Positions 17,171 through 59,225 of a stretch of DNA of 64,000 bases are shown piece by piece. The stretch is from a virus. The stretch lies in the IMG/VR virus record IMGVR_UViG_3300035682_000017, positions 17,704 to 81,703 of that record; one strand, 5' to 3'. Below the pieces are notes generated by a model. That model worked only from the letters and a program-made list of their open reading frames with translations. It had not been told where the DNA came from and searched no databases. Made by a program: the position numbers and the translations under genes. Positions within the stretch are counted from its first letter, which is position 1. Each line of letters begins with the position of its first letter.

Positions 17171-17773
17171 ATGATAAGTTCTATTGGAATATTAAGACAT
17201 AAGGTTGTTGATCCAGGACCACCTGTTACAGGACAAGTTTTACAAATTGGTACAGGTACATCGTTGGTGTATTATGCTCCAAATAATTATAGTTTTAAAT
17301 ATTCAAAATCTGCTTTTATCTGGACTGCTGCAGAAATGGGTGCTGCTAAAACCATTAACAATCTTCTCTTTTATCTTAGAAGTTATGGTGCATTTCCAAA
17401 TTTTTCAATGCAAACATTAAAAATAGGACATGTTGCACAATCTTCTTTTGCTACAAGTAATCCTCCAATTAATTTATCAGATTTAACTATATCAGATTTA
17501 ACTACGGTTAAAAGTAATTTTACATATTTTTTTAATCAAAATAATTTATGGTGGCCCGTTATTTTTGATACAAATTTTGTTTACAATGGTACTTCAAATT
17601 TAATATTAATTTGGGAACATGATGCTAATGATTGGGTTTCAACAGCTGGTGGAGCAGATGGTGAAACTCAAGCAAATAAAGGAATAACTGCTGGAAGTAT
17701 GACAAGTGCTTCAACAATACCTGCAGTTGGAACTATACTTACAAAAAGACCAAATATTAAAATTGGTTATTAA
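17171..17773 (+). CDS. Putative fibre tip / adhesin-like beta-sandwich protein
   Basis: MISSIGIL N-terminus. IWTAAEMG, FDTNFVYNGTSNLILIWE and RPNIK resemble domains of Bacteroidota surface proteins. Confidence 0.55.
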   Translation: MISSIGILRHKVVDPGPPVTGQVLQIGTGTSLVYYAPNNYSFKYSKSAFIWTAAEMGAAKTINNLLFYLRSYGAFPNFSMQTLKIGHVAQSSFATSNPPINLSDLTISDLTTVKSNFTYFFNQNNLWWPVIFDTNFVYNGTSNLILIWEHDANDWVSTAGGADGETQANKGITAGSMTSASTIPAVGTILTKRPNIKIGY

Positions 17774-40480: not shown

Positions 40481-43400
40481 ATGGCAAATGAAATAAATCC
40501 AGGTAAACCTAAAAAAAAAGTTGACTCTTCTGAATTAGCAGACAAACAAGCATCTATAGCAACCGGTAAAGAACTTGGAAAATTAAGAGAGGGTAATTTT
40601 AAAAATGCTATGCAAGGTGGTCAAGTAAGTGCTACTAAAGTTGGTGTTGATAGATTTATTACTTACGGAAGTAAGACTTTTGGAAAATTAGGATTTGATC
40701 CAAATAGAGATAATGCTGAATTTTATAACAACCGAACTTCTACTAGTGATGAAATGTGGAGAAGTGTTAAAGGTGCTTGGAATTTAGCAGGTGTTGGTTT
40801 TCAAGATAGTATTTTTCTAGGTGCAGTTTCTGATAAAAATTCTTCTCAAAAGTTTTCAGACATCATGGCTGATTACCAAGTTGATGAAAGAAGAGGTAAC
40901 ACTGCATTTTGGGGAAACACTATTACTTCTGCTGGATATACTGCTGGTATTATTGGAGCTATTGCTATTGAAGAAATTGGATTAGGTATTGCTACTGGAG
41001 GTTTAGGATTACTTGGTTCTGGTGGTATTATTGGAAGAGGTGTAGATAATATCTTTACAGGTTTAGGTAAAAGTAAACTTGCTAAAGTTGCTGGTGGTGG
41101 TAGAACTCATATTGAAATGATGGAAGGCCTTGCTGAAGTTGAAAGAGCAAGAGAAGCTTATGACAGTTATAGCAAGTTAAAAAAAGTTGGACTTAGTTTA
41201 GGTGAGTTTGGTAAAGACATTGCAAAAGGTTTAAATCCTATTGGTAATACTGCTGGGTTTTTAAAAGACCTAGAAAAAATGAATGATGTTAACGGCTTTG
41301 TTAAAATGGCAAATGGAGCTGGAGCTTTATACAGAGATGCTAGAAAGTTTACTATGACTCATAGTGAATCTAAACTAGAAGCTGAAATGAACTCAAAAGA
41401 ATTTTTTAATAAAGAACTTGATGCACTATATAAAAAGAATCCTGGTGCAGAAATATCCGAATTAGATCTTGAAGATTTAAAATCTAAAACTCAAAATGTT
41501 TTTGAAAAAACTTACAACGCCAACTTTGCTTTAATCTATGCAACAACTGCAATTGCTTTTGATAATGTTTTCCGTAACTTAAAGTTTAATCAGAATTGGT
41601 TAAAATCTGCAGAAGCTGGTAAAAACTCTATGAGAAATATAGGTAAGTCTTCGGCTGAATTTGTAACAGAAAACTTAGGAATTAATTTATCAAGAGGTTT
41701 AAAAAATTATGCTAAACGTACATTTTCTATTGGAGGATTAACTAGAGCCACTTTAGGAAATATTGCAGAAGGTTACCAGGAATTACAACAAGATGGTATT
41801 TCAACTAGTGCTGTTAGTTTTGCTAAAAGAAGTAAGGTAACAAAACAAACTGAAGGTAACTATTTTACAAATCTATACAATGAGTTAGCAGACAATTTTG
41901 ATTTTGTTGCTAATGGATTAGAGTATAAATTTATTCCTAAAACAGGAAGAGAATTAAGTACGTTTTTATCTGGTGCTTTTATGGGTGTAATTGCTTCTCC
42001 AGTTTCTATGGTTACGCAAGGTGCTCAAAAACTCACACTAGGAAAAGGATACAAATCTTTTTCTAAATCTTACAGAGAAGAACAAGCTAAATCAAATAGT
42101 AAAAATCAAGCAATTGCTAAAGTTCTTAACATGACCTTTAGAGAAAATCTTGATAAAGCTTACGATGTAGTTAACAAGCCTTTATTTACACAGATAGAAC
42201 TTCAAGAAAAAATTCTTGAGGCTGTTGAAAAAGGAGATACAAAAGCATTAGAAGATTTAAAAGATGCTACTTTTGCTGTGCAAGCAAACATGTTGTTAGA
42301 AACAAATGCAGATGAGGATTTTGCTGAACATTTAGATCAAGCTGCTTCAAAACTTAATGATTCAGAATTAGCAGAATTTTTAGGAAGAACTAACATTGAT
42401 GCAGAGAACTCTTCTAAAGTGCGTAAGGTTTTAAAAGATAAGGCAACTACTCTTAAAAAATTAAGAGCTGTTAAAAATGAAATTGATGCTAATGTAGTTT
42501 CTCCAATTAATCCAAATCTTTTAAATAAGAAGGATCCAGAGTATGCTCAAAAATATCACACATACCAGGCGTTTCAATCATTGAAAAAAGAGTTGTTATA
42601 TTCTCATGCTGCTATTTTGCAAAATGTAAATAGAACAGAAGGAATTAGAAGTAAACTTTTAGATAACTCAAAAAATATAAATTTTAGTTCATTTGAAGTA
42701 GAAGCGTTATTAAGTAGTGCTGATTTAAAATCACAAGTTGAGTTATTAAAAACTGAAATAGAATCAGTTAAATCTATTGGTTCTAGTAGACCTGAATCTA
42801 AAAAAGAATTAGAAGTTTTAGAAAAAAAACTTGTGGCTTATACAGAGTATCAAAAAGCATATGAGAAATTAAAAACAACTAAGGATTCAAATTCGGAAGA
42901 ATATGCAGATAGTGTAGATGCTGTACAAGAAGCTTTTCAAAATGTTGCTAAAGCATATAATGAAAGAACTACAAATAGATTCTTAGAAGTTGAAGGTATG
43001 TCTACAGACATTGTTGATTACTTAACTTTAGGTGAAGAAAGAGATGCTTTACAACAACATGTAAACCTTTTAACAAATAAAGATTACGCTTTCAATTTTA
43101 TTACAGAAGCTGAAAAACAAAATAAAAAAGCTTTAGCAAATCTTCAAAATCATATTGAAGATTCATTAAATGAATTTGATAAAAGAAAAGCTGCTAATAC
43201 CATGATGAAAATATTATCTGAAAAAGGAATAATATTTGACATGAATGAAATTGATGACTTATTTGAAAAAGGAATAATGCCATCAAAAATTTATGATATA
43301 GCAAAAAATAGTTTTGCTAATTCAAAACAAGTAGCAGAAGCACAAACCATTATTAGTTCTATTTATAAAAACCTTACAGGTAAAAGTATTTTAAATGATA

Positions 43401-46400
43401 AATCTAAAATAACAAGAGCTGGTTCTCAAAGAGCTGACAATGATACTAGAACTGTTAAAAATATCATTAAAGAATATGGTCTTAAAATGGATGAAGACAT
43501 TGATTTGTCTACTCCAGCTGGTAAAAGAATTATTAAAAAAGTTCTAAATTCAAATAAGTTAAGAGCAACAGATGTTGAAATATTAAATGAACTTCTTGAA
43601 AAAGGTGGTATAATTAAATTTGTTACTAATGCTGAATTGCCAATTACTTTTGAGAAAGGTGTTACAACTATTGATTTAAGATTTGCTGGAGCTGATTACA
43701 AAGGAACCACTTTATCTTTTGAAGGATTATTTACAACAGCATTACTTCAGGATAAAGTTGCTAGAAGAATTACAACTGATTCTGAATTTGCAGGTGAGGT
43801 AACGCAGTTAATGCAACAAACTAAACAATCACTCATAGATAAAGATCAAAGTGCACCAGCAGCTTTCTTTACGGATCCTGTGTTGTTTCTAGTTGAAGCT
43901 ATGAACAATAGAGCTTTGCAACGTGAAATGCAATCTATTAAAGATGACACACAAGTTTCAGAAAAAAGTATTTGGGCTTCCATGGCTGCGTTAATCAAAC
44001 GTATAATTAAAAGCACTTTAGCAAATGATACTCTACTTGAGAGAGCAGTTTACTTAACTAAGACCGCAACTTCAGATGGAGAACTTATTAAAGTTGAGGC
44101 AAAAAATGAAGAGGAATCTGCTGTAGAAACTGAACAAGAAGTTCAACAAGAAGAACCTACAACTGAAACTGAACTTGGTTTTGAAACAGATCCTGTTCTT
44201 GATTTAGAAAATAGAATTGATCAACTTAAAGTTGAATTGGCAGTATATGAAAATGAATTACGTAAAGTAAATAAACTTACTTCATTTAGAAAGTACTCCC
44301 AGCTTCAAAAGAAAATAGCTGGTTTAAATATAATGATTAATGATTTATCTGTTGAATTAAATGATCTTGTACCTGCAGAAGTTGTTGATAAACCAAAACC
44401 ATTTTCTCCAGTTAATAGAGTAGCGGATGAAGATCAGTATGGAAATATTATTCTAAATGAGAATGCTCCATTAAATGCTTTTCCAAAAGACATACTTAAT
44501 GAACTTTCTAATATCTATGGTAAAGATGTTACTACTTTAAAAGATTATGAGGAAGAAGAATTAAGAAAACTTATATCTCAACATCCTTTAATTATTAAAA
44601 TATTGAAAGCTCACAATGATGATGTCTATTCAATAGCAGATGAGTATGCTATTCTTACTAGCAATGAACAGGCTATGGAAGAAGGCAAACTTCTTGCTGA
44701 AAAAAGAGCAGCTGCACGTGAAAAAAGTATTCAAGACAACAAAGAAGAAGCACGTAAAAATGCAACTTTACAAGAAGACATGACACCAAAAGATATACTT
44801 TGGTTTAAGTTTGAACAAGCAGGTTTGTCTACAGATAATTTAAGATTGTTAACTGACAAGCAAGCTGAAACTCTCTTTGTTAAAGTGCGTGCAAAAGAAC
44901 TTGATCTTAATGATGTATTTAAGTTTGTTGAAAAGAAAAAACTTTTAAAAGACCAAAGAGCTACTAAAAAGTTTCAAAAAGAATTAGACTTATTAATTAC
45001 TAATGAGCAAGAAGATTTAGATAAGCAAAAAGAAAAAGAAGAGGCTCTTCAAAAAATAATTGATGAAAACAGAAAATTATTATCAGGTAAAAACATTAGA
45101 AGACGTAAAAAGATTTCTGAAAATAGATCAAAAGTTGTAAAAACAAATGTTCCAAAATCACATATTTTATTTTATGAAACATACTTTCCAGAAGTTTTAC
45201 TTATTGAAGATGAAATTAAATTTATTGAATTTATAAACAATGTTATTAAAGCAAGAGTTAACAATGGTAGAGTAAAAGCTAAAGCTGCATCTTTTTCAAA
45301 AAACAAAAATGAAGCATTAAATCAACTTGTAGATTTATTTATTGAACTTGATCACGCTAAAGAATTATTTCCTACAGTTGCAAATACAATTAATAAACAA
45401 CTACGCGCATCTAATTTACCATATAGAATTACTATGACTCCTACTAATAAAGGTGAACAACTGGTTGGTAGTATGTATAAAATTAGACACGTAGGTGATA
45501 TTAAAAAAAGAATTTCTAAACCTAAAAGAATACTAGGAGTTAATGATATTTTTAACTATTCTCAAAAAAGAGAGTTTGTTAAAAGTTATTTACCTACAAA
45601 TCTTAATGGAGAAGCTGCAGTTGAATTAGCAGTTATTCAATGGTTTTTAAATGGTGGTCGCGTTAGTTCTGAATTTATAACTTCTCAAGTTGGTTCAGAT
45701 TCTTCAGAGTTAAAAGCTAAAAAATCATTAATTAGTGCTAATGGTAAAAATAGATTGGATACAATCTTAGATGATTATATAGATATTTTAGATGTTGACA
45801 TTACAGAAAATGTTGCAATTTCTTTGTTAAATGATTACAGCACCATTAAAGAAATGGTTGAAGGAATGTTTGATGCTATTAAAGCTAACATTGATTCTGA
45901 AGAAAATCAACAAGGTGGTTCTGAAGATGAAAATTGGAATAACTTTATTAATTCTGAAGAGGGATCTGATTTCTTAAAAGATATGTATGAAGATGCTAGT
46001 ACTTATGAAAAAGAAGAACTCAACTTACTTGAATTTTATGCAAGCCCTGAAGGTAAAAAATATACAGATGCCTACAATAAAAATGTAGAATCTTATTACA
46101 ATTCCACATTATTTCAAATTGAAATGGGTGCTTTTGAAGGAGATCCTAACACTTTAGAGGGTGCGGAAAGAGAAGCTTACATGACGGCTGTAAAAGAAAA
46201 TCGTTATGAAAACAAGTTAAACCAGGATGAGAATACTGATGATACTGAAGATGTTTCACAAAAACCAAAAAAGGAAACTGCTGAAACTAAAGATGCATTA
46301 ATTTTTGAAGAAAAATTAAATAAAGAATTTGATATTTTTTACAATAAAGTTTTAACTGAAAGTTCTGGGGATTTATTTAACAAGCCAAACTTTGTTTTTT

Positions 46401-46894
46401 ATAATACAGCTGTTGCCAAATTAGAAAAAGATTTTACACTTAAAAATTTAATTTTAACACTTGCTGCATTTAACCAGTTTGGAAGCATTACACCTGCTCA
46501 ACATCAAAAGTTTTCAAGTGAGATGGTGAATAAAATTAGTGAAATTTCTACTGCTAATTCAAAGGAAATCCTTATTATTAATAATAAGGCTTATGAATTA
46601 TTACCTGGATTGAATAACAAACAAGTTCAATTAAAAGAAATTGGATCTGATGAAATTATTCTTAAATCATTTGAAGAACTTCCATTAGTAGTTTCAAATG
46701 TAAATGTTTCTGGAGATAATGTTAAATCTAAAACTGCTGTTGATGTAGAAAAAGATGAAGAATTTGAACCTGTTAAAGATGCCCTGTTGAATGTTTTTGG
46801 TAACTTTAAAAAACTTTTTGAATCAGGTGAAATTCCTGATAATTTGAATGGTATCAAAGAAGAAATAATTAAAAACTTAAATAACTGTAAGTAA
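40481..46894 (+). CDS. Giant ejection protein with putative membrane-spanning segments (2137 aa)
   Basis: Gly-rich hydrophobic stretch AGYTAGIIGAIAIEEIGLGIATGGLGLLG, EGYQELQQ motif, long coiled coils, degenerate zincin-like domain. Directly upstream of RNAP. Confidence 0.7.
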   Translation: MANEINPGKPKKKVDSSELADKQASIATGKELGKLREGNFKNAMQGGQVSATKVGVDRFITYGSKTFGKLGFDPNRDNAEFYNNRTSTSDEMWRSVKGAWNLAGVGFQDSIFLGAVSDKNSSQKFSDIMADYQVDERRGNTAFWGNTITSAGYTAGIIGAIAIEEIGLGIATGGLGLLGSGGIIGRGVDNIFTGLGKSKLAKVAGGGRTHIEMMEGLAEVERAREAYDSYSKLKKVGLSLGEFGKDIAKGLNPIGNTAGFLKDLEKMNDVNGFVKMANGAGALYRDARKFTMTHSESKLEAEMNSKEFFNKELDALYKKNPGAEISELDLEDLKSKTQNVFEKTYNANFALIYATTAIAFDNVFRNLKFNQNWLKSAEAGKNSMRNIGKSSAEFVTENLGINLSRGLKNYAKRTFSIGGLTRATLGNIAEGYQELQQDGISTSAVSFAKRSKVTKQTEGNYFTNLYNELADNFDFVANGLEYKFIPKTGRELSTFLSGAFMGVIASPVSMVTQGAQKLTLGKGYKSFSKSYREEQAKSNSKNQAIAKVLNMTFRENLDKAYDVVNKPLFTQIELQEKILEAVEKGDTKALEDLKDATFAVQANMLLETNADEDFAEHLDQAASKLNDSELAEFLGRTNIDAENSSKVRKVLKDKATTLKKLRAVKNEIDANVVSPINPNLLNKKDPEYAQKYHTYQAFQSLKKELLYSHAAILQNVNRTEGIRSKLLDNSKNINFSSFEVEALLSSADLKSQVELLKTEIESVKSIGSSRPESKKELEVLEKKLVAYTEYQKAYEKLKTTKDSNSEEYADSVDAVQEAFQNVAKAYNERTTNRFLEVEGMSTDIVDYLTLGEERDALQQHVNLLTNKDYAFNFITEAEKQNKKALANLQNHIEDSLNEFDKRKAANTMMKILSEKGIIFDMNEIDDLFEKGIMPSKIYDIAKNSFANSKQVAEAQTIISSIYKNLTGKSILNDKSKITRAGSQRADNDTRTVKNIIKEYGLKMDEDIDLSTPAGKRIIKKVLNSNKLRATDVEILNELLEKGGIIKFVTNAELPITFEKGVTTIDLRFAGADYKGTTLSFEGLFTTALLQDKVARRITTDSEFAGEVTQLMQQTKQSLIDKDQSAPAAFFTDPVLFLVEAMNNRALQREMQSIKDDTQVSEKSIWASMAALIKRIIKSTLANDTLLERAVYLTKTATSDGELIKVEAKNEEESAVETEQEVQQEEPTTETELGFETDPVLDLENRIDQLKVELAVYENELRKVNKLTSFRKYSQLQKKIAGLNIMINDLSVELNDLVPAEVVDKPKPFSPVNRVADEDQYGNIILNENAPLNAFPKDILNELSNIYGKDVTTLKDYEEEELRKLISQHPLIIKILKAHNDDVYSIADEYAILTSNEQAMEEGKLLAEKRAAAREKSIQDNKEEARKNATLQEDMTPKDILWFKFEQAGLSTDNLRLLTDKQAETLFVKVRAKELDLNDVFKFVEKKKLLKDQRATKKFQKELDLLITNEQEDLDKQKEKEEALQKIIDENRKLLSGKNIRRRKKISENRSKVVKTNVPKSHILFYETYFPEVLLIEDEIKFIEFINNVIKARVNNGRVKAKAASFSKNKNEALNQLVDLFIELDHAKELFPTVANTINKQLRASNLPYRITMTPTNKGEQLVGSMYKIRHVGDIKKRISKPKRILGVNDIFNYSQKREFVKSYLPTNLNGEAAVELAVIQWFLNGGRVSSEFITSQVGSDSSELKAKKSLISANGKNRLDTILDDYIDILDVDITENVAISLLNDYSTIKEMVEGMFDAIKANIDSEENQQGGSEDENWNNFINSEEGSDFLKDMYEDASTYEKEELNLLEFYASPEGKKYTDAYNKNVESYYNSTLFQIEMGAFEGDPNTLEGAEREAYMTAVKENRYENKLNQDENTDDTEDVSQKPKKETAETKDALIFEEKLNKEFDIFYNKVLTESSGDLFNKPNFVFYNTAVAKLEKDFTLKNLILTLAAFNQFGSITPAQHQKFSSEMVNKISEISTANSKEILIINNKAYELLPGLNNKQVQLKEIGSDEIILKSFEELPLVVSNVNVSGDNVKSKTAVDVEKDEEFEPVKDALLNVFGNFKKLFESGEIPDNLNGIKEEIIKNLNNCK

Positions 46895-46895
46895 C

Positions 46896-49800
46896 ATGAA
46901 AATTTGCATTACTCCCAATTCTATTAAATTATTCTACGTTTATTTTGAAAGCATAGCTCCTAATTTTAAATTAGATAAAAGCACTTTACCAGAAACATTA
47001 AAACTGTTTTATGATAAAGCAATGGATGATTTTTCAAGTAGTTCTCAAAATAAAAAAGAATTAACTGAATTGGTACTACAACATTTAAGCATTTTGCCAA
47101 AAGTTTTACAATCAGAACTTGTTCTAACTTCAAATAGAGATTTGGTAAAAAATGTAAATAATTTACAATTAGAAATTGAATCTGGTATTTTAGAAGGTAG
47201 TGGAAAATTAATTGATGTAATTAATAATATAAACTCAATGATTGGCAATGGTCCAATCATTCCTACAGTGTCACAAAATGATGAAGATGATTATAGATTT
47301 GATGCTATATCATTTGAGTTTAGTAAAACTAATAATCAAGACACTGAAGTATCTTCTTTAAATTCTTTTAAGGATAACATTAAAAGTGAAAATCAAACTT
47401 TGACTACTAATGTTACGATAAACATTGTAAAATCTAACAATGCTAAAAATTATAAATTTAAAGCATTCTTATTTAAAGATGTAGAGTCTTTAGTTTCTGG
47501 TGAGTTAGATAAAAACTTTTTACCAAATGATTTTGTTATGCTTGTTGTTGATGCTAATAACAACATAGTAAAGTTTGATAATGCTGGCGTTGAATCTGAA
47601 AAAGGAATTGTTCCTATTTATTGGACAAAAGTACTAGGTACTGAATTTTCATTTAAAGCAAACAACTTGGCTTTAATCTTCTCACAAAAATATAAAATAT
47701 CAATTAATGAGGCAGAGAAAATTGTTGCTAGTAAATTAAAAGAGCATTTATCTAAAATTGAATATATTAAAACCAATCTTGAAAAAGGAAATGAGGTAAC
47801 TATTCCAATTGATATAAACAATAGTTCAGTAGGGTTCATTGAAAAGTCTTTTGTTGAAAGATTCCCATTGTCTAATATGACAAACCTTGGTGAAGTTAAA
47901 GTTGTACTTAAACAAGATTCAAAAAGAAGAAGTGCTTTAATTATTCCTGAAAAAGGTAATGAGTCTTTTCCAATTTCTGGAACTGAATTAGGACCAATGT
48001 TAACAGAAGAATTTTCTGAAGTTCTTTTTTCACTTGCGTTTGCTCCAAACCTTCTTTATAAAAATTCAAACGGAAAAGTTTTTTCAAGTGTACTTGGTAT
48101 AAGTGAAAGGAAAGAAAGATTAAGCACTTTACTTAAAGGGGTTTTAATTTCTTCTGTTGCAATTAAAAGTGAAAATCCAAATGAAAGACCTGTTATTAAA
48201 AATCAAGTTATTTTTGGTAACTATTCTTTTTCATATACGTATGATACCAAAAACAATGAATATACTTTTGACAATGGTGTTAAAATTGAACAAGTAAAAA
48301 ATTTATTCAATGAATTTTTAAAAGAAGATGACATCATTTTAACTAAACTTGATCCATCTAATCCTAAAATTTCTTCTAAGTTAAAAGAAAATAGAGCTTC
48401 TGCAAATGCAGGTGATTTCTTTATTGAAAATGACTCTGTTTATTTTAAAACAAAAAAACTTGTAAATCTTGGTATACCTACAGGTGTTGTTAAAGCTGGA
48501 GTTGATTCACCAGTTATTCGTGTACCAGTTTCATCAGAAATATCTGAATCCGGACAGAAAGTTATTGTTTTTGATTCTTACAGTTTGAGTGATTTTGTTA
48601 AAACTTTTGGAACAACAAACTTGATTCCAAATAAAAACAATGAACTTGTAGCTAACTATCCTTATTTAACTTTTGGTAACCCAATGGTTAAGTTAGAAGA
48701 AAACAATACTGAAGAAGATGAAACTTTATTTCAGTCACTAGCTGATACAGTTAGACCTACTGGTTCAAGTGAACTTCAGGAAGCTGCTCTAAAGTGGTTT
48801 CAAAATCATCCATTAAGCAAATTAATTTCATTAAATATTTCAGATCAAGTTAGTGCAAAAGGTCCAAACTTTGTTGCTAACTTTTTAAACAATGCTATTA
48901 CTTTGTACAAAGGCTCTTTAAATACTGATATATTTCACGAGTCTTTTCACGCATTTACACAATCTGTTTTATCACCAAAAGAATTAGAAGCATTATATTC
49001 TAAAATTAAAAGTACGCCTGGTTATTTTACAGTTGTTGTTCATGGTGTAAAAAAAGAATTGCGTTTTGATAAAGCAAGTAATCTTGAAATTGAAGAGTAC
49101 CTTGCTGAACAATTTAGAATGTATGCTCAAAACAGAACTACTTCTTCTAAATTAAGTGTACAAGTAAAAGAATTTTTTGATAGACTTTTAACACTCATCA
49201 AATCTATTTTTGGTGATATGCGTATTACTGATGCTGTAAATTTGAATAGGTCTAGCAAGTTGGCTTCTAAAACATTTGAGGCTTTATTTTCTGGAAATAT
49301 AAACCTTTCAAATTTTAGACAATCAAGTACAGATGCTTTATGGAAATCAAGTGAAATTGATACAGACTTTTCAATGGAAGAAATCCATGTAATTATGGAT
49401 TCTATGAAATCTTTGTTTAATGAGTTTGTTACATACGGTGTTAACTCAAACAACAAACCTTTATTAAACTTGATGATGCAATTATCTGAAGTTAATGAGG
49501 AGTTGGAACCAGAAAAATATAATAAGATTAAAGAAGAACTTTCTTTAAAACAAAATTCAATTAGAGATAAATATACTGCACGCGGTTTATTTTCTGTACA
49601 AACAAATTCAGAGTTGTTTAAAACAGGATTAACTTATATTAAAAACAACCTTATCCAGCAAAGAAATTTATTAGATAAAAGATATTCTGAAAATCCAAAC
49701 AACTTGAATTTTAAATTTGCAGCAGATGTATTAAACAAAGCTGTATCTAATTTTGGAGATGAGCAAGAAGCATTTAATGAAGTTCCTACTGAAAAAGGAT

Positions 49801-52800
49801 ACGCAACTATTTCTGCATTATTTTTAAATAACTATTCCAACTTAAATTTAAAAACTGTTTCTAAAGAAATTGAAACAAGTCAAAATAATTTAGATGGTGA
49901 ACAAGAATTACAAGAAAGAAATGATGAAGACTTGGCGTTAAATGAAGATCCAACATTGGACTTTAACAAAAATGGTAATGATGAAAGCATCCAGGACTTA
50001 ATGGATAATCATACTAAAGAGCTTCTTTCAAATGTAACTAAGCATACTAAAAATGGTAAGGGTGTTCCAATGTTAAATCAACTTGGATTTAAAAAAGCAT
50101 TGCCATTAGAAAACATGATTGCCAAAACTGCAAAGTTATTAGCAAATACAATTAGTCGTATTGACATGTATAATAAGCTTAAAGAAGCTGCTTTAAAAGA
50201 TGGTGAGTTTAAAGAATTGCTTTTTAAACTTGGAGATCCTTCTTCTGCAAATACAACTTTGAGTGAGCAAAAACAATGGCTTGCATTTTGGCAGGCAATG
50301 AATAAAGCTGATATTATTCTTAGACAATTTGTAATTGAAAAGAATGATGTAATAAATGGTAAAGAATCTTCTACAGAGTTATTAATGTATTCTGGTAGAA
50401 CTGTTGCAGACTCTCTTTATATTGGTAGAGAATGGGCTGCTAACTTTAATGAGTTATTAGAGTTAAGTCCTTATGCAAAAGAAGATGAGAATGGAAAAAA
50501 ATACATTGATGTAAAAATGTTTTTTGAAGAATTCCAACCTGAACTTCCTGTCTACAGTGTAAAAGATCCAGCCTCAACTTTAGAACCATATCTTACACAT
50601 GCTGAATACATCCGTTCAGTAAACAAAAAAGAATATGAAAGCTCAAGAGCATTAAAAGCATATTCAGAACCATTTGAATTTTTAAATGCTTTTGGAATTG
50701 ATCTAGTAGATGATTCAGCTGTAAGAGATATTATTAGAAAAGGTTCTAAAAACTTTAAGTTTGAACCTTTATTTTTATCATACATTGTTGATTCTTTAAA
50801 AAACAAAATTGAACAAAATGATGGTAAGTTATACAGGATGGATGAAATCTTTAGCGCATTTAACTTTAAAAATAAAGATGGTGTTTACATTCAACAACCA
50901 GCAACATATACAGTTAAAAATGCTTTACAAGAATTGCATTCTCAATTTTCAAATGACAATGTATCCTTCATGGCTACAACTTCATACAATGAAAAGAAAT
51001 CTGAAAAAGCATTAAACTCATCTTTAACTGTTGAATTAAATGCTTTAAAGAAAGCAAACACGTATGAAGAGTTAATTGTTATGCCAGGAATGAGAAAGTT
51101 TGACATAGATTTAAACCCTTTTGTTGGTGGCAATAGAGCATTTGTTCAATTATTTAATTTGGATAACGCTAATCCTATTATTAGAGGTACAAAAAATAAA
51201 AACATTGAATTTAAACTTGAAGATTTAACTGGTTCAAAAGTTAAATACAATTTAAAAGTAACCAATGATGGTGAAACTGTTACTTCTGAAAATGAAAAAG
51301 GTGTTTCTTCTATGGCTTCTGATGAAAATACAAAATTCATTACAGATTTTTATACCACTTTAGAAGGTATACAAGAATTACCAAGGATGGAAGCTAAGTC
51401 TTCTTCATTTGCAATGTTTAATACACAATTTGTAGATGAGCAATTACGTGGTAATAAAACTGGAGATAAAAATAGAAAATTGATTTTTGAAAAAAATGAA
51501 ATCAATCAGATATTTTCTAAAGATTATACTGGTGATTTTTTATATCAACAGTTTAAAGGGCATTTAAGTGCAGAGATGATTCGTATCCAAAGAATAAATA
51601 AACTTGAATCTGAAATTTTAAATTCAGATGAGGAATTTATTTTTGATTTTGATTATTTGAATAGAGCAAAAGACTTTATGATTTTTCAAAATTTATTAAG
51701 CAAGGATGTTAAAAACAAATTAAAAAAATTAAACTTAGATCAACTTTCAGTTCTTCAAGTAGAATCTTTATTTTCTAAAGAACTTATAGCTGATATTGAA
51801 AAAGATCTAGTTGTTTACTTTAAATCAAAATCTAAAAACATATCTAAAAATTTCAACAACATTCCAATTAGCAAATCTATTTTGGAAGAGTATACAATGT
51901 TGAATCAAGATGAAGTTGTTTTATCTGAAGAGGATGCAAAACAAGTTATGTTTGATACATTTACAACTAACAACTTTATAAACAATTTAAACTTTGTTAC
52001 TTTGTTTATTGGTGACATAGGTTTGTTTAAAGTAACAGATGAAGATTTTCATAAACGTAATGCAGGTATCATTTCTAGTGGTAAAATTTCTGCAGTAGAT
52101 GAAGCGTTTTTAGATTTTGTTAATGGTGCTACTTTTAACAACTATGGTTTTGCTAAAAAGTTTAATGGTGAAGCAAAAGATAAAAGTTTTTATTCCTATG
52201 ACGGTAAACTTAATACTGCAGTATTAGAAGAATCTAAAGCAGATTCTAAATACATTGATACATTTAGAGAAATTATAGGAAGCAAAGCTGAATCATATTT
52301 AGGTATGGAAGAAGCGGATGGTCAAGGTTGGATTACTTTTGATTCATATAGATTGTTAAATTTATCTTATAATGAATGGTCTGATGAACAAGAGGCACTT
52401 TACCAAAAGATGTTATCTGGTGAGAACTATTCTCAAGATGAAATTTTAGCAACTTTTCCTGTTAGAAAGTTTCAATACTTTGGTCACGTTACTAATGATT
52501 TAGGTGTGTCTGCATCTTTATCTACAACAGCATTCCACAAGTATTCATTAATGCCATTAATACCTGATTTAATTAAAGGAACTAAACTTGAAAAATTAAA
52601 TGAGAAATTAATGCGTGAACATATTGATTACGCGGTAATGAAGTCTGGTTCTAAAGTGTCTAGTTTATCAAGAATAACAAGAGTAAAAAAGGCTGATGGT
52701 ACTTATGAATTAAAAAAAGAACTTGACTTATTTTACAATAAAGATAGAGAGGTAATAGATGAAAAACCATTTATCAAAAATATTATTGATGCTACTCATT

Positions 52801-55800
52801 TAAAAAATGTTGTGTTTTTAGGAGAAGGTTTTAAAGGAAAAATTCCTTTACCAACTCAAATGCGTAAAATGATTCTTCATGGTTTAATGGAGAATGGTGT
52901 TCCAGTTGATTATAAAGGTGCACCAGAAGAATGGAATGCATTAAGTGAAAAAGAAAAACTTAAAAATAAATACTACCAATGGTATCAAAAATACGCTTCT
53001 ACTATTAAAAAATTGAGAGATGTATTTAAAAATGAACTTTTGGATGACATCTCTATGAAATGGGATGAAAAAAAGAAAATGTATACAGGTGATACAACTG
53101 CTATTGTTAATTACATTAAAAATGAATTAGAAAAAAATGACTTTTTACCACATGAAATAGATGGTATTGCTGATGTAAATGGTCACTTAATTGATGATTT
53201 ATCTTTTGATTTAAACAGTCAAAAAATTGAAAGCATTTTAACTGCTCTTGTTGATAAACGCCTGCGTAAATTTAAAGTAAATGGTGAAGCAATGGTTCAG
53301 GTATCTGGTGCAATGTTTGAATCAAATGGAGGTCTTGGAACATTTGCTAAACCTACGGATGAACAAATGGTACAATTCAATGGTACAAATGATTTAAAGT
53401 TTTATCCAATAGAAAAAGATGCTGAAGGCAATGTTATCATTAGCGCAATGGAAGTTAAAATTTCATTGCAAGGAGATTTTAAAAATTTAATTTATTTAAA
53501 ACATCCAGACAAAAATGTTATTGCTGTTAAAAATGCTGATGGTAAAATTGACATGGAGGCTTCTCGTTTAAGATTAAATGAGGCAATTAAAGACCGTGCT
53601 TGGAATAATAAACATAAGAATCTTTTACAAATGCCAGGTGTTCGTATTCCAACACAAGGGCCAAATGCATTAGATGTTGCTATTGTTGCTGAATTTTTAC
53701 CTGAATGGGCTGGACCAATAGTTATTCTTCCTTCAGAAATGGTTATTAAAACTGGTGGGGATTATGATATTGATAAAATGTTCTTCATGCTTCCAAGTAT
53801 ACTGCGTAACAAAAAAGATGGCGCATCCTTATATGAGTATGAAGAATTAACTACTTCTTATGAAGAACTTGATGCTGAAAAAACGGTTTTAACAAAAAAT
53901 ATAAAATCTACATCTGAAAATATTGACAACCTGTATAAAGAAAAATCAAAATTATATTTAACAAATAAAGATATTTCTGAAGAGGTTAAAGAAGAGTTTG
54001 AAGCTGAAAATTTAAAAATTGGAAAAGCAAAAAAACAACTTGCATTTTTAAAAGAAAATTTACAAAAAATTAAAACGGTTCCTTTAAATGAAACTAAACG
54101 TAAAAGATTAATTGAAGAAAATGAACTTCAAAGTATAACACTTGAAGAATTAATTATTTCAATTAGAAATGAAAGAGAAAAAAGACAAGCAGAATTATTA
54201 AGTTTTGATACAGGGGTTTCTAGTTATAAATCTGCAATGGATTCATTTGTTTTACAAATTAAACTTGAAGAAGATGTATTGCAAAAACTACTTGATAGAA
54301 AAGAACAAATAGTTTTATCAATGAAACAAAGTTCTACCAAAGGTTTGGAAAATGAACTTTTAAGATTGATGGTAGATAAAATTTTAGATACTAATAACAT
54401 AAAAGATTTACTTACACCAAATGGTACAGAAGAAGCTAAACCTCTTTCAAAAAAATTAGAAAGAGTTTTAAATAAATCATTTAACAAGTATGAAAAAATA
54501 CATGATGAGATTACAGATCCTTTAAAAATATCACCAACAACTCTATTTGATTATGAATACAACTTGCAAAAACAACAAGAAAATTCAGTTGGTAAAGATG
54601 CATTAGGTATTGCTGCAGTTGTATCTACATTTTATGCATTGTTTACAACATTTGATTCTAAGTTAAATGGTCCAACTATTGAAGCATTAGACTCATTTAA
54701 AAAAGCACTTTCTTCAAGTGATCCAAAAGGTATTGAAAAGTTTAGAGGATATGCTATTAAATTATCTCACAACTATGTTGAAAATACATTACAAGGCAAT
54801 AAGATAAAACAAGTTGCATTAGGAAAAAGATATAGTTCTGAAACAGATAAGAAATTAATTGCGGATACTATTTCACAATTGATTAATGGATTTGTGGATG
54901 TTGCTAAAGATGCTTGGGTGTTTAACATTCAGGGAAATAAAGAAAATTCACCAACTTTATTGTTCATGATAATGGCTGGCGTTCCTTTAGAAGATGCTGT
55001 TTATTTATCATCAAACCCTTTAGTTTTAGAATACAATAAAATTAAAAAAGAAATGCAGGGTGTATATTCTAAAGTGAATTACGAACAAGGTGATCCAATT
55101 GTTGAAAATGGTTTTAAGTTAAATGAGTTAGCTGGAAAGGCTCTTTTAGATAAGTATCCTACACTATTTAAAAAATACAAAGGATTAACTCCACATGCAA
55201 TAAACAACATAACTGAAGGAGATTTTTCTAATGACGCACTTTACAATAGAATTGGTAAGACTCCAACTGAAGAAGATATTATATATTTTGCACACTATGT
55301 TGAAATAGAATCTATCTCTGGTGACTTAACAAAGTTTCAACAAGCTAATAAGCACGATACAACAAAAGTTTCAAACATCACTGATGCTGAAAATAACATT
55401 GTTAAAAATGAAAACTTTTTTAGATATAGAAGTGCAATTCCAAGAGAATGGGAAGACTTGTTTAAAGAAAATCCAATTGGTGTATTTAATGCTAATGATT
55501 TTATTGTACAAGTATTTAAACAGTTCTTTAAAATTAAAAACAACCCTGTTGTAAATCAACTTGCAATTGAATTTTCTAAATCTGAAAATGTTAAAAAGAT
55601 TGTTGGTAAAGCAGATACTTCAAGAAATGCATTTAAAAATGATTTCATTTGGTTCTTATATCAAAATGCTGTTTATAATAGTAATAAACTTTCTTATTTT
55701 AATGAAGAGGGTAATTCTGTAACAAACACTTTTATTGAAGATGATTCTATTAATAAAGCAATTGAACTTAATTTTGAAGAAGACAGTGATAATATAAATA

Positions 55801-58800
55801 TTACTTACAGTCCATCAAAAATTAGCCAGGAGTTAGCAATGACTACTGATAATTTAACTAGATCCGTATTTATAAATAAAGGCAAACCTGATATTTTAGA
55901 ATATGCTAAATACAAGTACTTGTTTACAGAGTATAGTGCAATGTTTTCCAATGTTAGTGAAGAAGAATTAAGAAGCAAATATTACTTCTTGGCTTCTAAT
56001 AAATTTACTAAAACTCATTTAATAAAAGCTATTGTATTATATGATTTAAAAAGTCCAAGAAGTTTGTTTAATTCTTATGTAGGTGCAGGATCAATAATTA
56101 AAAAATTCATACGCAAGCATCCTGATTTAAAAAACTATTCATTTATTTCAGATTTAAAATTTGATGATGATTATGATTCTTTCAAATCAAATATTTATTT
56201 ACCAAAAAACACTGGTAAAAAATTAATGCAAACTTATCTTGAAAATATAAATGAGTTGCGTAATCATACAGCACCGGAAGTTGCTGAATTTTTTAAAGGT
56301 TTTGACAACTATTTAGTTATGCAGTCAGGTTTAAATGCGGCTTCTAAATATTTTATGGGCCCATTGATTTCAAAAGGATATGTTTATAACACAGCCGCAT
56401 CTCAATTAGATTTTACATCTATGGAAGATTTGTTTAAAGTTTCTTATGATCAGTTTAAAGAATTTGGAAATAGTTTTTTAAGCTATGAATATAAGGATGG
56501 TAATAAGATTGTAACAGATTCTGTTAAATTAGGTTTACTAGAACAGTTTTCTGAATCAATTTTTAATGTTGTAAATAAAAATGGTTGGAGGCAACGAGGA
56601 AGAGGTGTTAATTATGTTCAAGATAAACCATTGAATTATGGTGGAGTTAAAACTGTTAAAGAAACTCCTTTGACATATAGCAATGTAAGTTTCTTTAATA
56701 ACATGTCTGATATAAATATTAGTGATTACGACTTTATTTTTAATCCGGCTTCAATTTTTGAATCTGAATTTGAAAGTATTGATGATGTTGTTGAGATGTT
56801 AAAACCTTTTGCTGATGATAAAGTAGCATTTCCAAATTATAAAATAATTGTTCCAGAAGAAACTTTATTTACACAAAAAGAATTTGATGATTTCCTTTTA
56901 GAGTATTTTGGTATTGACAATACAGGAATGAGTCCAAATGCAATTCCAAAATCTAAAATTGGCAGGTCTTCTAATATGACCATTTCAACTGTTCCTTCTA
57001 AAGTGAAATACGAATGGTATTCAGATGAAATAATCTCTTCAAATTCTACAAAAGCAATTGCCTTTGAAAGTAAACAAGCACCAAAATATGCAAGTAAACA
57101 TAAAAATTACATTGATGCATTAGAAGGTTTTGTAAACAAAGATTTCAATGCTGATGATGCTGTTTGGATATTTGGTGCATCTTTAAGAAGTGAAGCATAT
57201 TCAGATAAATCTAAATCAGAATACGAACAGGTATTGACTGATGATTTTAACAATAAATATGTTGGTGAGATTGATAAAGCAATTGCTTCAGGGGTAACTA
57301 AATTTTTAACAGATGCTAAGAATACAGGTATTTCTTTAAGAGCTGGAAACCATTTACTTGCACAAGGTTTTAAAAAGGTTGTTACATACGGAGCTAACTT
57401 TGAAAAGTATTACTCTTATTATAAATCTTTATCAGATGTTGATTCACAATATTTTGATCCAAGTAATTCTGAAATTTCTATAAGTGATCTTAAAATTGAC
57501 ATTCACATAAATGCAATTTCTAAAATACTTACTAAAAAGTTTTTTGAATTATCAGAAGAACAAGTTGCTAATAATGGTGCAAGTTTTGTAGAGGGTATTG
57601 TTAAAGCGTATTTTTCTGATAAACTTGGGGAAAAATTAAATTTTGCTAGAAATTTATACATGTCTAAAAATTCTCCATTAAAAATTGGAACTTCACCTGC
57701 AGCTGTGTATTTAGAAAAATATTTAATGGGAAGTTTAATTCCAGCATTAGATAAAAAGTTTAATGTAGCGACTGATCAACCATCTGCTAGTGTTAAAGAA
57801 AGAAAAGTAAAAGTTGTTGCTGACGGTATTAAAGTTATAGATAATGCAATTACACAAGAAGAAGAGTTAGAATTATTTACAGCTATAAAACCTTTTTTAG
57901 AATCACAAGGTGTTCAATCAAACATAGGAAAAAATGCTCCTATTATGATAGGCTTAGGACTTAGATGGGATTACACATCAAACAATCCAGGAAAAACTCC
58001 TGTTGAATTAGGTGAAACTATAAACAATAGTGAATATCAAAAGAATAAATATAGATACTATCTTGTTTCAGCTGACGGTCAACCTTTAGGTGATATTTCA
58101 CCAAGAATAAAGGAGTTAATGACTAAAGCTACTGGTATTGATGCTACCAACTATGATGGTGCAATTATAAATATATACCCTAAAAATTCTTTTATATCTG
58201 CACATAATGATGTAGATGAATCAGTTACTGCAAAACAGTATCCTGTATTAGTTGTAAATATAGGGGGTGAGGGTAGTTTAAGTGTTGAAGGTTCTAAAAG
58301 CCAAACTGCTAAAAAAGGTTATTCTGAAAAAGAATATACAGATACTCCTTTATCTACAGGTTCTGCTTATATTTTTGGAGAAGGTGGTAAAAATAGAGAT
58401 GTATTCCATAGAACTTTACCGTCAGCTGTTAAAGGTACACTGCCTGAATTAAACATTAAAGGTAAAATTATTCCTGCTAATTCATATAGAATGACGATAA
58501 CATTAAGAAGAGTCATGCCTTTAGAACCAGGAATGCTTACAGTACCAGCTAAAGCTACTACTCAATCATCTACTAGTAGAAAAACTTATTCTGGTAAAAT
58601 AACTGAATTAAAAGATAAGCAAGTATTTGTATTTGGAAGCAATCCTTTAGGTATTAATGGTAATCCTGCTAAAGGTACAGGAGGTGCAGCATTAGTTGCT
58701 TACAATATTGCTGGTGTAAAACAAGGTGAAAAAATGGACAACATTCTTTCTGATTCAGGAAAAGCATATGGTATAACTACTGTTACAGCTCCTGGAAAAC

Positions 58801-59225: not shown

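Follow-up and report, generated by a model that had tools for sequence, protein, structure and literature searches.

What might a very large virion RNA polymerase (RNAP) gain from the several hundred residues that follow its polymerase core? The question is raised by a 64,000-nucleotide (nt) stretch of viral DNA (IMG/VR record IMGVR_UViG_3300035682_000017, positions 17,704 to 81,703; hereafter the window), in which a giant open reading frame (ORF) of 4109 amino acids (aa; 46896..59225, on the + strand like all features described below) appears to join a zincin, a crAss-type virion RNAP and an accessory tail in one polyprotein. The tail, formed by the last ~770 residues, comprises three modules and an end-piece. 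A sequence-only reading of this DNA had assigned it degenerate SLOG-like, AlkB and A1S_2505/macro-like domains and had proposed that the injected polymerase doubles as a carrier of anti-defence effectors; every string quoted in that reading was recovered in place, in a single reading frame of the ORF. crAss-like phages are among the most abundant human gut viruses, and we know of little that explains how they pass host defences at entry. The interpretation to which we lean, with modest confidence, is that the tail, made up of a SLOG-derived module, an intact AlkB domain, a very divergent macrodomain and a cysteine-bearing end-piece, is an accessory kit that travels with the packaged polymerase and is directed against host defences.

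The last of the three modules (58587..59036) carries the central result. It was delimited by NF049995, phrog_2072 and hhalign, and contains the motif FVFGSN (residues 3911-3916, 58626-58643) with its conserved asparagine N3916 (58641-58643), the Gly-rich loop GTGGAA (58674-58691) and the motif LNGYTG (58923-58940). The FVFGSN domain had been suspected to belong to the A1S_2505 family, and this membership is confirmed by NCBIfam model NF049995 (A1S_2505_Nterm), which matches residues 3910-4038 with 50.4 bits against a cut-off of 45 and covers model positions 1-109 of 109, and by phrog_2072 (PHROGs, annotated as function unknown), which matches residues 3898-4047 with an E-value of 1.7e-15. Judged by their profile scores, these two matches and that of PF13532 to the preceding AlkB domain are real and not due to chance.

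Two alignments served to place the domain, namely A1, built from 59 sequences of the clade to which the window copy belongs, and A2, representing the core A1S_2505 family. A set of 237 candidates of 88-282 aa yielded 207 standalone homologues of the window clade at E <= 0.001, and hardly any of these has a Pfam domain. Alignment A1 (n=59) has 11 invariant positions and a mean column identity of 34%, and comparison of its 59 members with Pfam at E <= 5 returned no recurrent family, the commonest being Beta_helix (5/59). A relative is carried by 98 annotated phage records, mostly as a 'hypothetical protein'; in cr50_1 it forms part of a product annotated as 'DNA helicase', and in cr112_1 of one annotated as 'putative RNA polymerase'. 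The core family was reached through a match in Bacteroidota genomes (4/401 genomes). It is very large: when 8000 candidates were scored, 7998 fell at E <= 0.001, and the 120 of its proteins that were listed carry no Pfam domain. Aligned to each other with hhalign, the core family and the window clade, which have no sequences in common, match at 99.5% with an E-value of 3.8e-23 and are, on this profile evidence, clearly homologous.

The relation of this family to macrodomains emerges from comparison with a broad reference set (A4). It consists of 12 diverse proteins taken from the 537 phage records that a DarG-like macrodomain matched by tblastn. The products annotated for these coding sequences include 'Appr-1-p processing', 'macro domain-containing protein' and 'O-acetyl-ADP-ribose deacetylase 1-like', and 10 of the 12 proteins match Pfam Macro and no other family. 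Against A4, the core family profile A2 scored 94.7% (P 6.2e-8) over 115 columns, with 90-95% on repeating hhalign, and the window-clade profile A1 scored 34.9% (P 4.1e-4) over 93 columns in unchanged register. A bona fide MacroD profile, as positive control, reached 86%; profiles of LOG, DprA, methyltransferase, SDR, YAcAr and the module preceding AlkB gave P-values of 0.055-0.26. The observed family score of 52.3 compares with shuffle maxima of 19.3 for single columns and 21.5 for 8-column blocks, and the window-clade score of 30.4 with maxima of 19.7 and 14.8, respectively. Shuffled versions of A4 reached the observed score in 0/60 cases in each of the four runs, where one of the 240 scores may duplicate the preceding one. 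Because the match to the broad phage macrodomain set stands far above controls and shuffles, the A1S_2505 family is very probably a divergent macrodomain of the DarG/AdfM/TARG1 kind, and the macro-like assignment of the sequence-only reading is thus borne out by profile-profile homology.

Structural predictions offer further leads. The Atlas model of the homologue P0263 is confident (predicted template modelling score, pTM, 0.87), and among the structural neighbours listed for it, all of them in-family, are clusters that bear ADP_ribosyl_GH, PARG_cat_microb, NUDIX and DUF1810. One neighbour at a TM score of 0.90 was automatically named 'Macro domain-containing protein', and the first Pfam-bearing neighbour cluster, with fused families skipped, has Macro on 11% of its members at a score of 0.82; both are to be read as leads. 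SLOG profiles (LOG, DprA, YAcAr and a broad mix) gave P-values of 0.11-0.39 against the A1S_2505 family. YAcAr was present in 2 of 201 Bacteroidota genomes, and a YpsA (PF06908) reference could not be drawn from that source, with 0 of 151 genomes containing it. The labels 'MacroD-like' and 'LOG/DprA-like' for the A1S_2505 domain were rejected, as the first profile tests against Bacteroidota sets all gave less than 1%. AdfB of ICP1, a 77-aa non-enzymatic binder, was likewise discarded as a relative.

A narrow reference of 14 DarG-like and TARG1-like macrodomains from Bacteroidota genomes gave a less stable picture. The A1S_2505 family matched this set at 54% (P 1.3e-4), and at 40.5% (P 2.9e-4) in a second profile-profile run. 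Taken one at a time, the N half (P 0.022) and the C half (P 1.3e-5) each aligned in register; crossing them gave P-values of 0.3-0.44. Several observations weigh against the macrodomain assignment, and some of them arise from this very set: its P-value was 0.1 against the window clade alone and 0.012 against a wider A1S alignment, shuffling in 8-column blocks equalled its score in 9 of 150 runs, and an S-adenosylmethionine (SAM)-methyltransferase profile matched the strand-GCG-helix block with a P-value of 0.0016. Because of these block shuffles and the methyltransferase match, the narrow-set result is ambiguous and fragile, and it took the broader phage set A4 to settle the matter. To the same side belong the lack of any signal from MacroD/YmdB-type macrodomains (P 0.2-0.9), the absence of a Pfam Macro (PF01661) match for the tail at E <= 1 and, among the 25 families listed, for the 59 clade members at E <= 5, and the comparison of the window domain and of profiles A1 and A2 with solved structures, which returned only noise at E <= 10. 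The macro fold of the window domain is read from sequence profiles.

At the residue level, the register is consistent along the length of the domain. FVFGSN of the A1S_2505 family falls on ..ITVN of macrodomains, G-R-H-G-K-G-A-A on G-V-M-G-A-G-L-A, Y-A-I-P-T on M-F-P-T-K and V-T-E-I-G-C-G-L-A-G on I-P-P-L-G-C-A-N-G-G. Shared with the AdfM, DarG2 and TARG1 macrodomains is an order of motifs in which a strand ending in Asn is followed by a Gly-rich loop and helix, an x-P-T-x strand, a helix, a strand with a G-C-G loop and a final helix. N3916 is invariant in 59/59 window-clade sequences (query N27) and in A2 (N22), and aligns with Asn23 of L181, a PhiKZ-like AdfM homologue. AdfM (PhiKZ gp104) is described, in the available portion of PMC13309987, as a phage enzyme that takes the ADP-ribose added by DarT2 off DNA. 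The same portion reports that mutating a conserved catalytic-site Asn lowers de-ADP-ribosylation, and one of its methods headings reads 'gp104 N23A'.

The window copy itself departs from this pattern at three points, all of which add to the case against the assignment. The second phosphate-binding loop (G-x-G, IGCG/LGAG) is kept in the core A1S_2505 family as VTEIGCGLAG, whereas the window copy has ...VGKKNLNGYTG in place of the IGCG loop, following a clade pattern ...Y-x(6-8)-LNGYT. Where DarG-type macrodomains have PTK, the strand whose lysine is catalytic in DarG and TARG1, the window has ITTVT (TTVT); part of the A1S_2505 family has LPTKDL, and the core clade IPT-x-N. Finally, the window clade carries a six-residue insert in the first, Gly-rich loop, GINGNPAKGTGGAA. 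Because the window copy is without the GCG loop and the PTK lysine and bears the loop insert, catalysis of the DarG/TARG1 kind by this copy is doubtful; the domain may bind its ligand rather than hydrolyse it, or may use another mechanism.

The company that the family keeps in other proteins points to ADP-ribose. For profile A1, 120 longer proteins of 351-2000 aa are listed; by their precomputed Pfam domains, NADAR accompanies the A1S_2505 domain in 12, SF1 helicase domains in 10, cpYpsA SLOG in 8, ART-PolyVal in 6, YAcAr SLOG in 4, Toprim in 2, and AlkB, DUF4326 and RNase_T in 1 each. In P0189 the order is DUF488-N3a/DUF4326, YAcAr, NADAR and A1S_2505. Three proteins of 578-731 aa (P0172, P0173 and P0179) have a tandem pair of A1S_2505 domains followed by NADAR; in P0172 and P0179 the FVFGSN strand is missing from the second copy. 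A 411-aa Bacteroidota ORF (L119) combines ADP-ribosylglycohydrolase-like motifs in its N-terminal part, which by motif reading looks like the ADP-ribosylglycohydrolase type, with the opening half of an A1S_2505 domain, the rest of which matches in an overlapping 166-aa frame (L120; genome G120, contig 14), an arrangement that suggests a frameshift or a sequencing error. The link of the A1S_2505 family to ADP-ribose chemistry is supported by these architectures, since the partners are the set described, in the available text, by Iyer et al. for viral Macro, NADAR, SLOG and DUF4326 domains.

Ahead of the macro-like domain lies an AlkB-type Fe(II)/2-oxoglutarate dioxygenase domain (57804..58535), the second element that the sequence-only reading had named. 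It is the sole Pfam domain of the tail: the envelope of PF13532 (2OG-FeII_Oxy_2) spans residues 3715-3871 (58038-58508), and the match (E 1.4e-10) scores 42.2 bits with the whole protein and 44.7 bits with the 909-aa tail segment, above a cut-off of 31.2. The HxD...H...RxxxxxR set of iron and 2-oxoglutarate ligands is intact, with H3770-x-D3772 (58203-58211), H3838 within RDVFHRT (58395-58415), and R3865 and R3871-R3872 within RMTITLRR (residues 3865-3872, 58488-58511). The H-x-D motif is invariant in all four aligned AlkB cassettes (the window and three giant or long proteins), and the RR pair is kept in all three cassettes that reach that point of the alignment. A match to the E. coli AlkB equivalog TIGR00568 was not obtained (18.2 bits, cut-off 231.05), and comparison of the AlkB region with solved structures returned noise only. 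On its profile match and ligand residues, the identity of the domain is certain, and it is taken to be an active AlkB-family dioxygenase.

The first module of the tail (residues 3341-3635, 56916..57800) is more difficult to name. Delimited by alignment of its relatives and by hhalign, it bears the strand-1 motif AVWIFGAS (residues 3422-3429, 57159-57182) and a degenerate signature beginning TDAKNTGIS (FLTDAKNTGISLRAGNHL, residue 3472 onward, 57309-57371), and continues as a helical extension beyond about residue 3515. In an exhaustive phmmer search, only 21 of 1.84 billion representatives were relatives at E <= 0.001. Twelve of these are 3665-4234 aa long and match near residue 3170-3470, and the other nine, of 426-2457 aa, are probably fragments. 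By these sequence matches, residues 3341-3635 form a real conserved module that is confined to relatives of the giant protein. A related-locus search with the module found no relative in viral contigs, and its comparison with solved structures yielded noise only.

The alignment of the module shows VW[IV]FG[SA] and, some 45 residues on, F-x-V-G-x-A-S-G-I-D-x-x-A-x-x-Y-L-x-x-K-G-F, a pattern that resembles the DprA and YAcAr SLOG domains among the sequences fetched for comparison. With hhalign, the module matched YAcAr (5 sequences) at 29.7% (P 5.6e-4) over a short stretch of 31 columns, DprA with P 0.066 in the same register, and a broad SLOG mix at 13.7% (P 0.002) over 81 columns; as controls for that mix, LOG reached 76% and eight other profiles gave P 0.04-0.51. 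Of the 22 module copies, 17 retain the signature G.[AG].G[IN]D; those without it are P0138, P0142, the window (TDAKNTGIS) and its two nearest relatives, P0122 and P0123. No counterpart to the second half of a SLOG domain is evident, and no SLOG Pfam model matched either the window tail (E <= 1) or eight module-bearing relatives. The shortness and weakness of the SLOG signal, and the absence of the signature from the window copy, count against the name. Since the relatives keep a signature that weakly matches the YAcAr and DprA profiles, and this signature is gone from the window copy, the label 'degenerate SLOG-like' is fair, and we would retain it by a slight preference. In this phage, the module probably persists as a structural remnant. 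Of the Rossmann/SLOG-like stretch proposed ahead of AlkB, the existence of a conserved module with 21 relatives stands; its SLOG signal is weak (P 5.6e-4 and 0.002), and no Pfam match appeared.

The SLOG-like module is fixed in position and the content behind it varies, from 93 to 606 residues in the 21 relatives against 474 in the window; this position is a variable slot. AlkB occurs in 3 of the 21 relatives (Pfam and a rebuilt hidden Markov model). In the nearest relative, P0122, AlkB (residues 3708-3848) is followed by a weak DprA-like SLOG match (residues 3994-4046, E 0.0016, below cut-off), and the presence of this element in one protein and of the macro-like domain in the other is a domain swap in one slot. 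P0123 has neither an AlkB nor an A1S match. Profile A1 matches none of the 21 module relatives, and profile A2 gives three candidate domain rows in P0141.

Behind the slot, the protein closes with an end-piece (QLSLFDD ... FLSLPLKVQQ ... NCK; 59061..59222) with a cysteine near the C-terminus. According to phmmer, it is conserved at the extreme C-termini of P0122 (E 8e-9) and P0123 (E 1e-11). A Cys lies, as judged by eye, within the last 6 residues in 21/21 relatives as well as in the window (KNCK, 59211-59222; ...NC, ...EC, ...CYK or ...CGE in others), and this terminal Cys could serve, as a conserved site, in anchoring, metal binding or processing. The linkers between modules are rich in T, S, Q and P. 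The one joining AlkB to the macro-like domain (58546..58573; find-repeats family D1) recurs as a weak direct repeat behind the macro-like domain (59023-59050; 71% identity over 28 nt, at a spacing of 477), with the reservation that two-copy repeat families of this 28-nt size are often due to chance. The linker preceding AlkB (~57768-57791) is similar at the protein level only, and a search for DNA-level repeats bracketing AlkB gave nothing of note.

The carrier of these modules is, by homology, a crAss-like virion RNA polymerase polyprotein. A tblastn search with residues 1668-2867 against 50,697 phage records matched 25 of them, including g066 of Cellulophaga phage phi14:2 ('Catalytic RNA polymerase subunit'; E 7e-17, 25% identity). 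The RNAP core homology covers residues ~1780-2300 (52233..53795), and in the same search crAss phage features named 'putative RNA polymerase / RNAP subunit' overlie GGDYDID (residues 2287-2293, 53754-53774), a DxDxD-type catalytic motif. Upstream, HESFH (residues 681-685, 48936..48950) is an HExxH zincin-type motif in a region recognised by neither Pfam nor PHROGs. The available part of a preprint by Drobysheva (10.1101/2020.03.07.982082) describes phi14:2 gp66 as a protein of 2180 residues that is packaged in the virion, accompanies the DNA during translocation and transcribes early genes, with single-stranded or denatured DNA as its in vitro template; in some phages, polymerases of this type are joined to their neighbours, one of them a zincin, as a single polyprotein. 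The gp65 orthologues of that preprint provide the analogy for the zincin reading of HESFH, which suggests that the zincin-type neighbour of gp66 has here been fused to the polymerase in one 4109-aa polyprotein. Because of the homology to gp66, it is a reasonable inference that the window polymerase is likewise packaged and enters the cell with the DNA, as the 'injected RNAP' of the sequence-only reading had supposed.

The window, part of an 81.7-kb virus record, has a G+C content of ~30%, and 29/29 of its ORFs of at least 150 aa are on the + strand. The flanking giant ORFs, 40481-46894 (2137 aa) and 59225-64000 (>1591 aa, running off the window), gave no Pfam match at E <= 0.01 and no PHROG at E <= 1e-5. 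As a separate observation, a phmmer comparison of the whole giant protein (P0001) with the PDB returned 0 solved chains at E <= 0.01, despite the E 7e-17 tblastn match and the crystal structure of gp66 described in the preprint; this may reflect HMMER filtering of a long and compositionally biased query.

How, then, could such a tail act? Under the interpretation to which we lean, the polyprotein would be packaged and would enter the cell with the DNA, like phi14:2 gp66. AlkB would then strip alkyl lesions from single-stranded DNA or RNA, and the macro-like domain would bind or remove ADP-ribose on DNA (DarT-type) or ADP-ribose-derived signals, so that the two together would shield the incoming genome and the first transcripts. 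The identities and order of the domains are read directly from the comparisons above, as are the homology between macrodomains and the A1S_2505 family and the recurrent fusion of the latter to ADP-ribose enzymes. Packaging, cleavage, activity and targets of the tail are conjectural, which counts against the proposal. If the packaged polymerase does carry erasers of alkylation and of ADP-ribosylation, it would provide a concrete counter-defence for the first minutes of infection, and an eraser tail of this kind would explain the large size and the variability of crAss-like polymerase genes.

A more specific version of this idea, which we regard as improbable at present, is that the tail cleans the template in cis, a 'repair-coupled pioneer transcription' in which the erasers would take alkyl and ADP-ribosyl marks off the strand to be read, or off the first transcripts made, by the very polymerase that bears them. 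AlkB-type and DarG-type enzymes both act on single-stranded nucleic acid, and it is because of this property, together with the transcription of single-stranded or denatured DNA by gp66, that the idea arises. If it were true, the slot behind the SLOG-like module would let phages swap the eraser to fit the defence of the host, and the Pfam-less A1S_2505 family would, as a side claim, represent a minimal macrodomain clade specialised for this conflict.

Among the rival explanations, the one that survives best, itself rather unlikely, holds that the macro-like domain acts on small molecules, namely the diffusible ADP-ribose-derived signals or toxins of nicotinamide adenine dinucleotide (NAD)-dependent immunity, and so blunts signalling at entry, with AlkB as an unrelated repair add-on. 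The fusions to NADAR, SLOG and DUF4326 and the clustering with NUDIX, all tied to soluble ADP-ribose metabolism, fit this explanation, as does the lack of the DarG-type PTK lysine and GCG loop in the window copy. However, the closest detectable relatives of the domain are DarG/AdfM-type macrodomains, AdfM, the one characterised phage example, acts on DNA according to the available portion of PMC13309987, and the tether to a polymerase would suggest a nucleic-acid substrate.

Somewhat less probable still is a largely non-catalytic tail, in which domains that have decayed or been co-opted would serve this phage as spacers, as adaptors for packaging or ejection, or to regulate the polymerase. Such a structural frame would accommodate the conserved Cys end-piece behind a slot of 93-606 residues, the disappearance of the SLOG signature from the window and its two nearest relatives, and a macro-like copy without two motifs of the core family. 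It is harder to reconcile with an AlkB domain in which every catalytic residue is kept, with the 11 invariant positions in 59 sequences, including the Asn and the Gly-rich loop, which argue for a conserved ligand site, or with the existence of the window clade as 207 standalone proteins as well. Least probable of all, and in our judgement very unlikely, is that the A1S_2505 domain has another Rossmann-like nucleotide-binding fold, for example a SLOG-related one, and resembles macrodomains by convergence on Gly-rich phosphate-binding loops: the strongest block of the first comparison (strand, GCGxxG and helix) did survive block shuffling (9/150) and also matched a methyltransferase (P 0.0016), but the broad-set score of 52.3 against shuffle maxima of 19.3 and 21.5 (0/60 each), a match that covers 115 columns with all motifs in order, the P-values of 0.11-0.39 for SLOG profiles and, as a lead only, the Atlas neighbours (one named 'Macro domain-containing protein' at TM 0.90, and Macro on 11% of one cluster) speak against it.

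Apart from the tail, a much larger set of proteins is concerned: no Pfam model exists for the A1S_2505/phrog_2072 family, whose sequence clusters number in the thousands at least. Its link to the DarG and AdfM macrodomains supplies a working hypothesis, the binding or removal of ADP-ribose, for very common phage 'hypothetical proteins'. In the literature searched, no paper linking A1S_2505 to macrodomains was found, and in the available texts the name 'A1S_2505' occurs only with Acinetobacter genes; the link may already be implied by an automatic cluster name or by the supplements of PMC9503650 and PMC7824862. Known in principle, from the available parts of PMC5512222 and PMC9503650, are the presence of many enzymes on one delivered phage protein and of ADP-ribose enzymes in phage heads. 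None of the literature searched places macro, AlkB or SLOG domains on crAss polymerases, and the term 'crAss-like' is absent from the main text of PMC7886860 and PMC5512222.

Compared with the known systems, the macro-like domain is shorter than AdfM, DarG2 and TARG1, at ~140 aa, and is without ~20-35 residues between helix 1 and the PT strand; whereas these are free macrodomains, the window domain is fused to a polymerase and has no Pfam Macro match. The AlkB domain shares the HxD...H...R...R set with other viral and phage AlkB proteins, of which jumbo phages sporadically encode AlkB-like enzymes according to the available text of Iyer et al. 2021 (PMC7824862), and the window copy differs from them in being embedded in a polymerase tail. 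With the network of Iyer et al. (PMC9503650, PMC7824862), the A1S_2505 family has in common the partners NADAR, YAcAr/cpYpsA SLOG, DUF4326, SF1 helicase and 3'-5' exonuclease, and the available text of these papers names neither A1S_2505 nor crAss RNAPs. With phi14:2 gp66 the window protein shares the polymerase core and the DxDxD-type motif, but its 4109 residues compare with 2180 in gp66 and include an N-terminal HExxH part and a tail of ~770 residues that the available part of the preprint does not describe for gp66.

A close parallel for the arrangement as a whole is provided by the polyvalent proteins (Iyer et al. 2017, PMC5512222), which are likewise very large, predicted to be delivered by the virion, and bear several enzyme or effector domains behind a structural or essential core. 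AlkB, SLOG, 2OGFeDO and crAss do not occur in that main text, and in two passages among its three matches to 'macro' the word is 'macromolecule'. Several domains are seen in the window protein as well, and its delivery is argued by analogy with phi14:2 gp66. What sets it apart from the polyvalent proteins is that here the carrier would be the crAss-type two-barrel RNAP itself.

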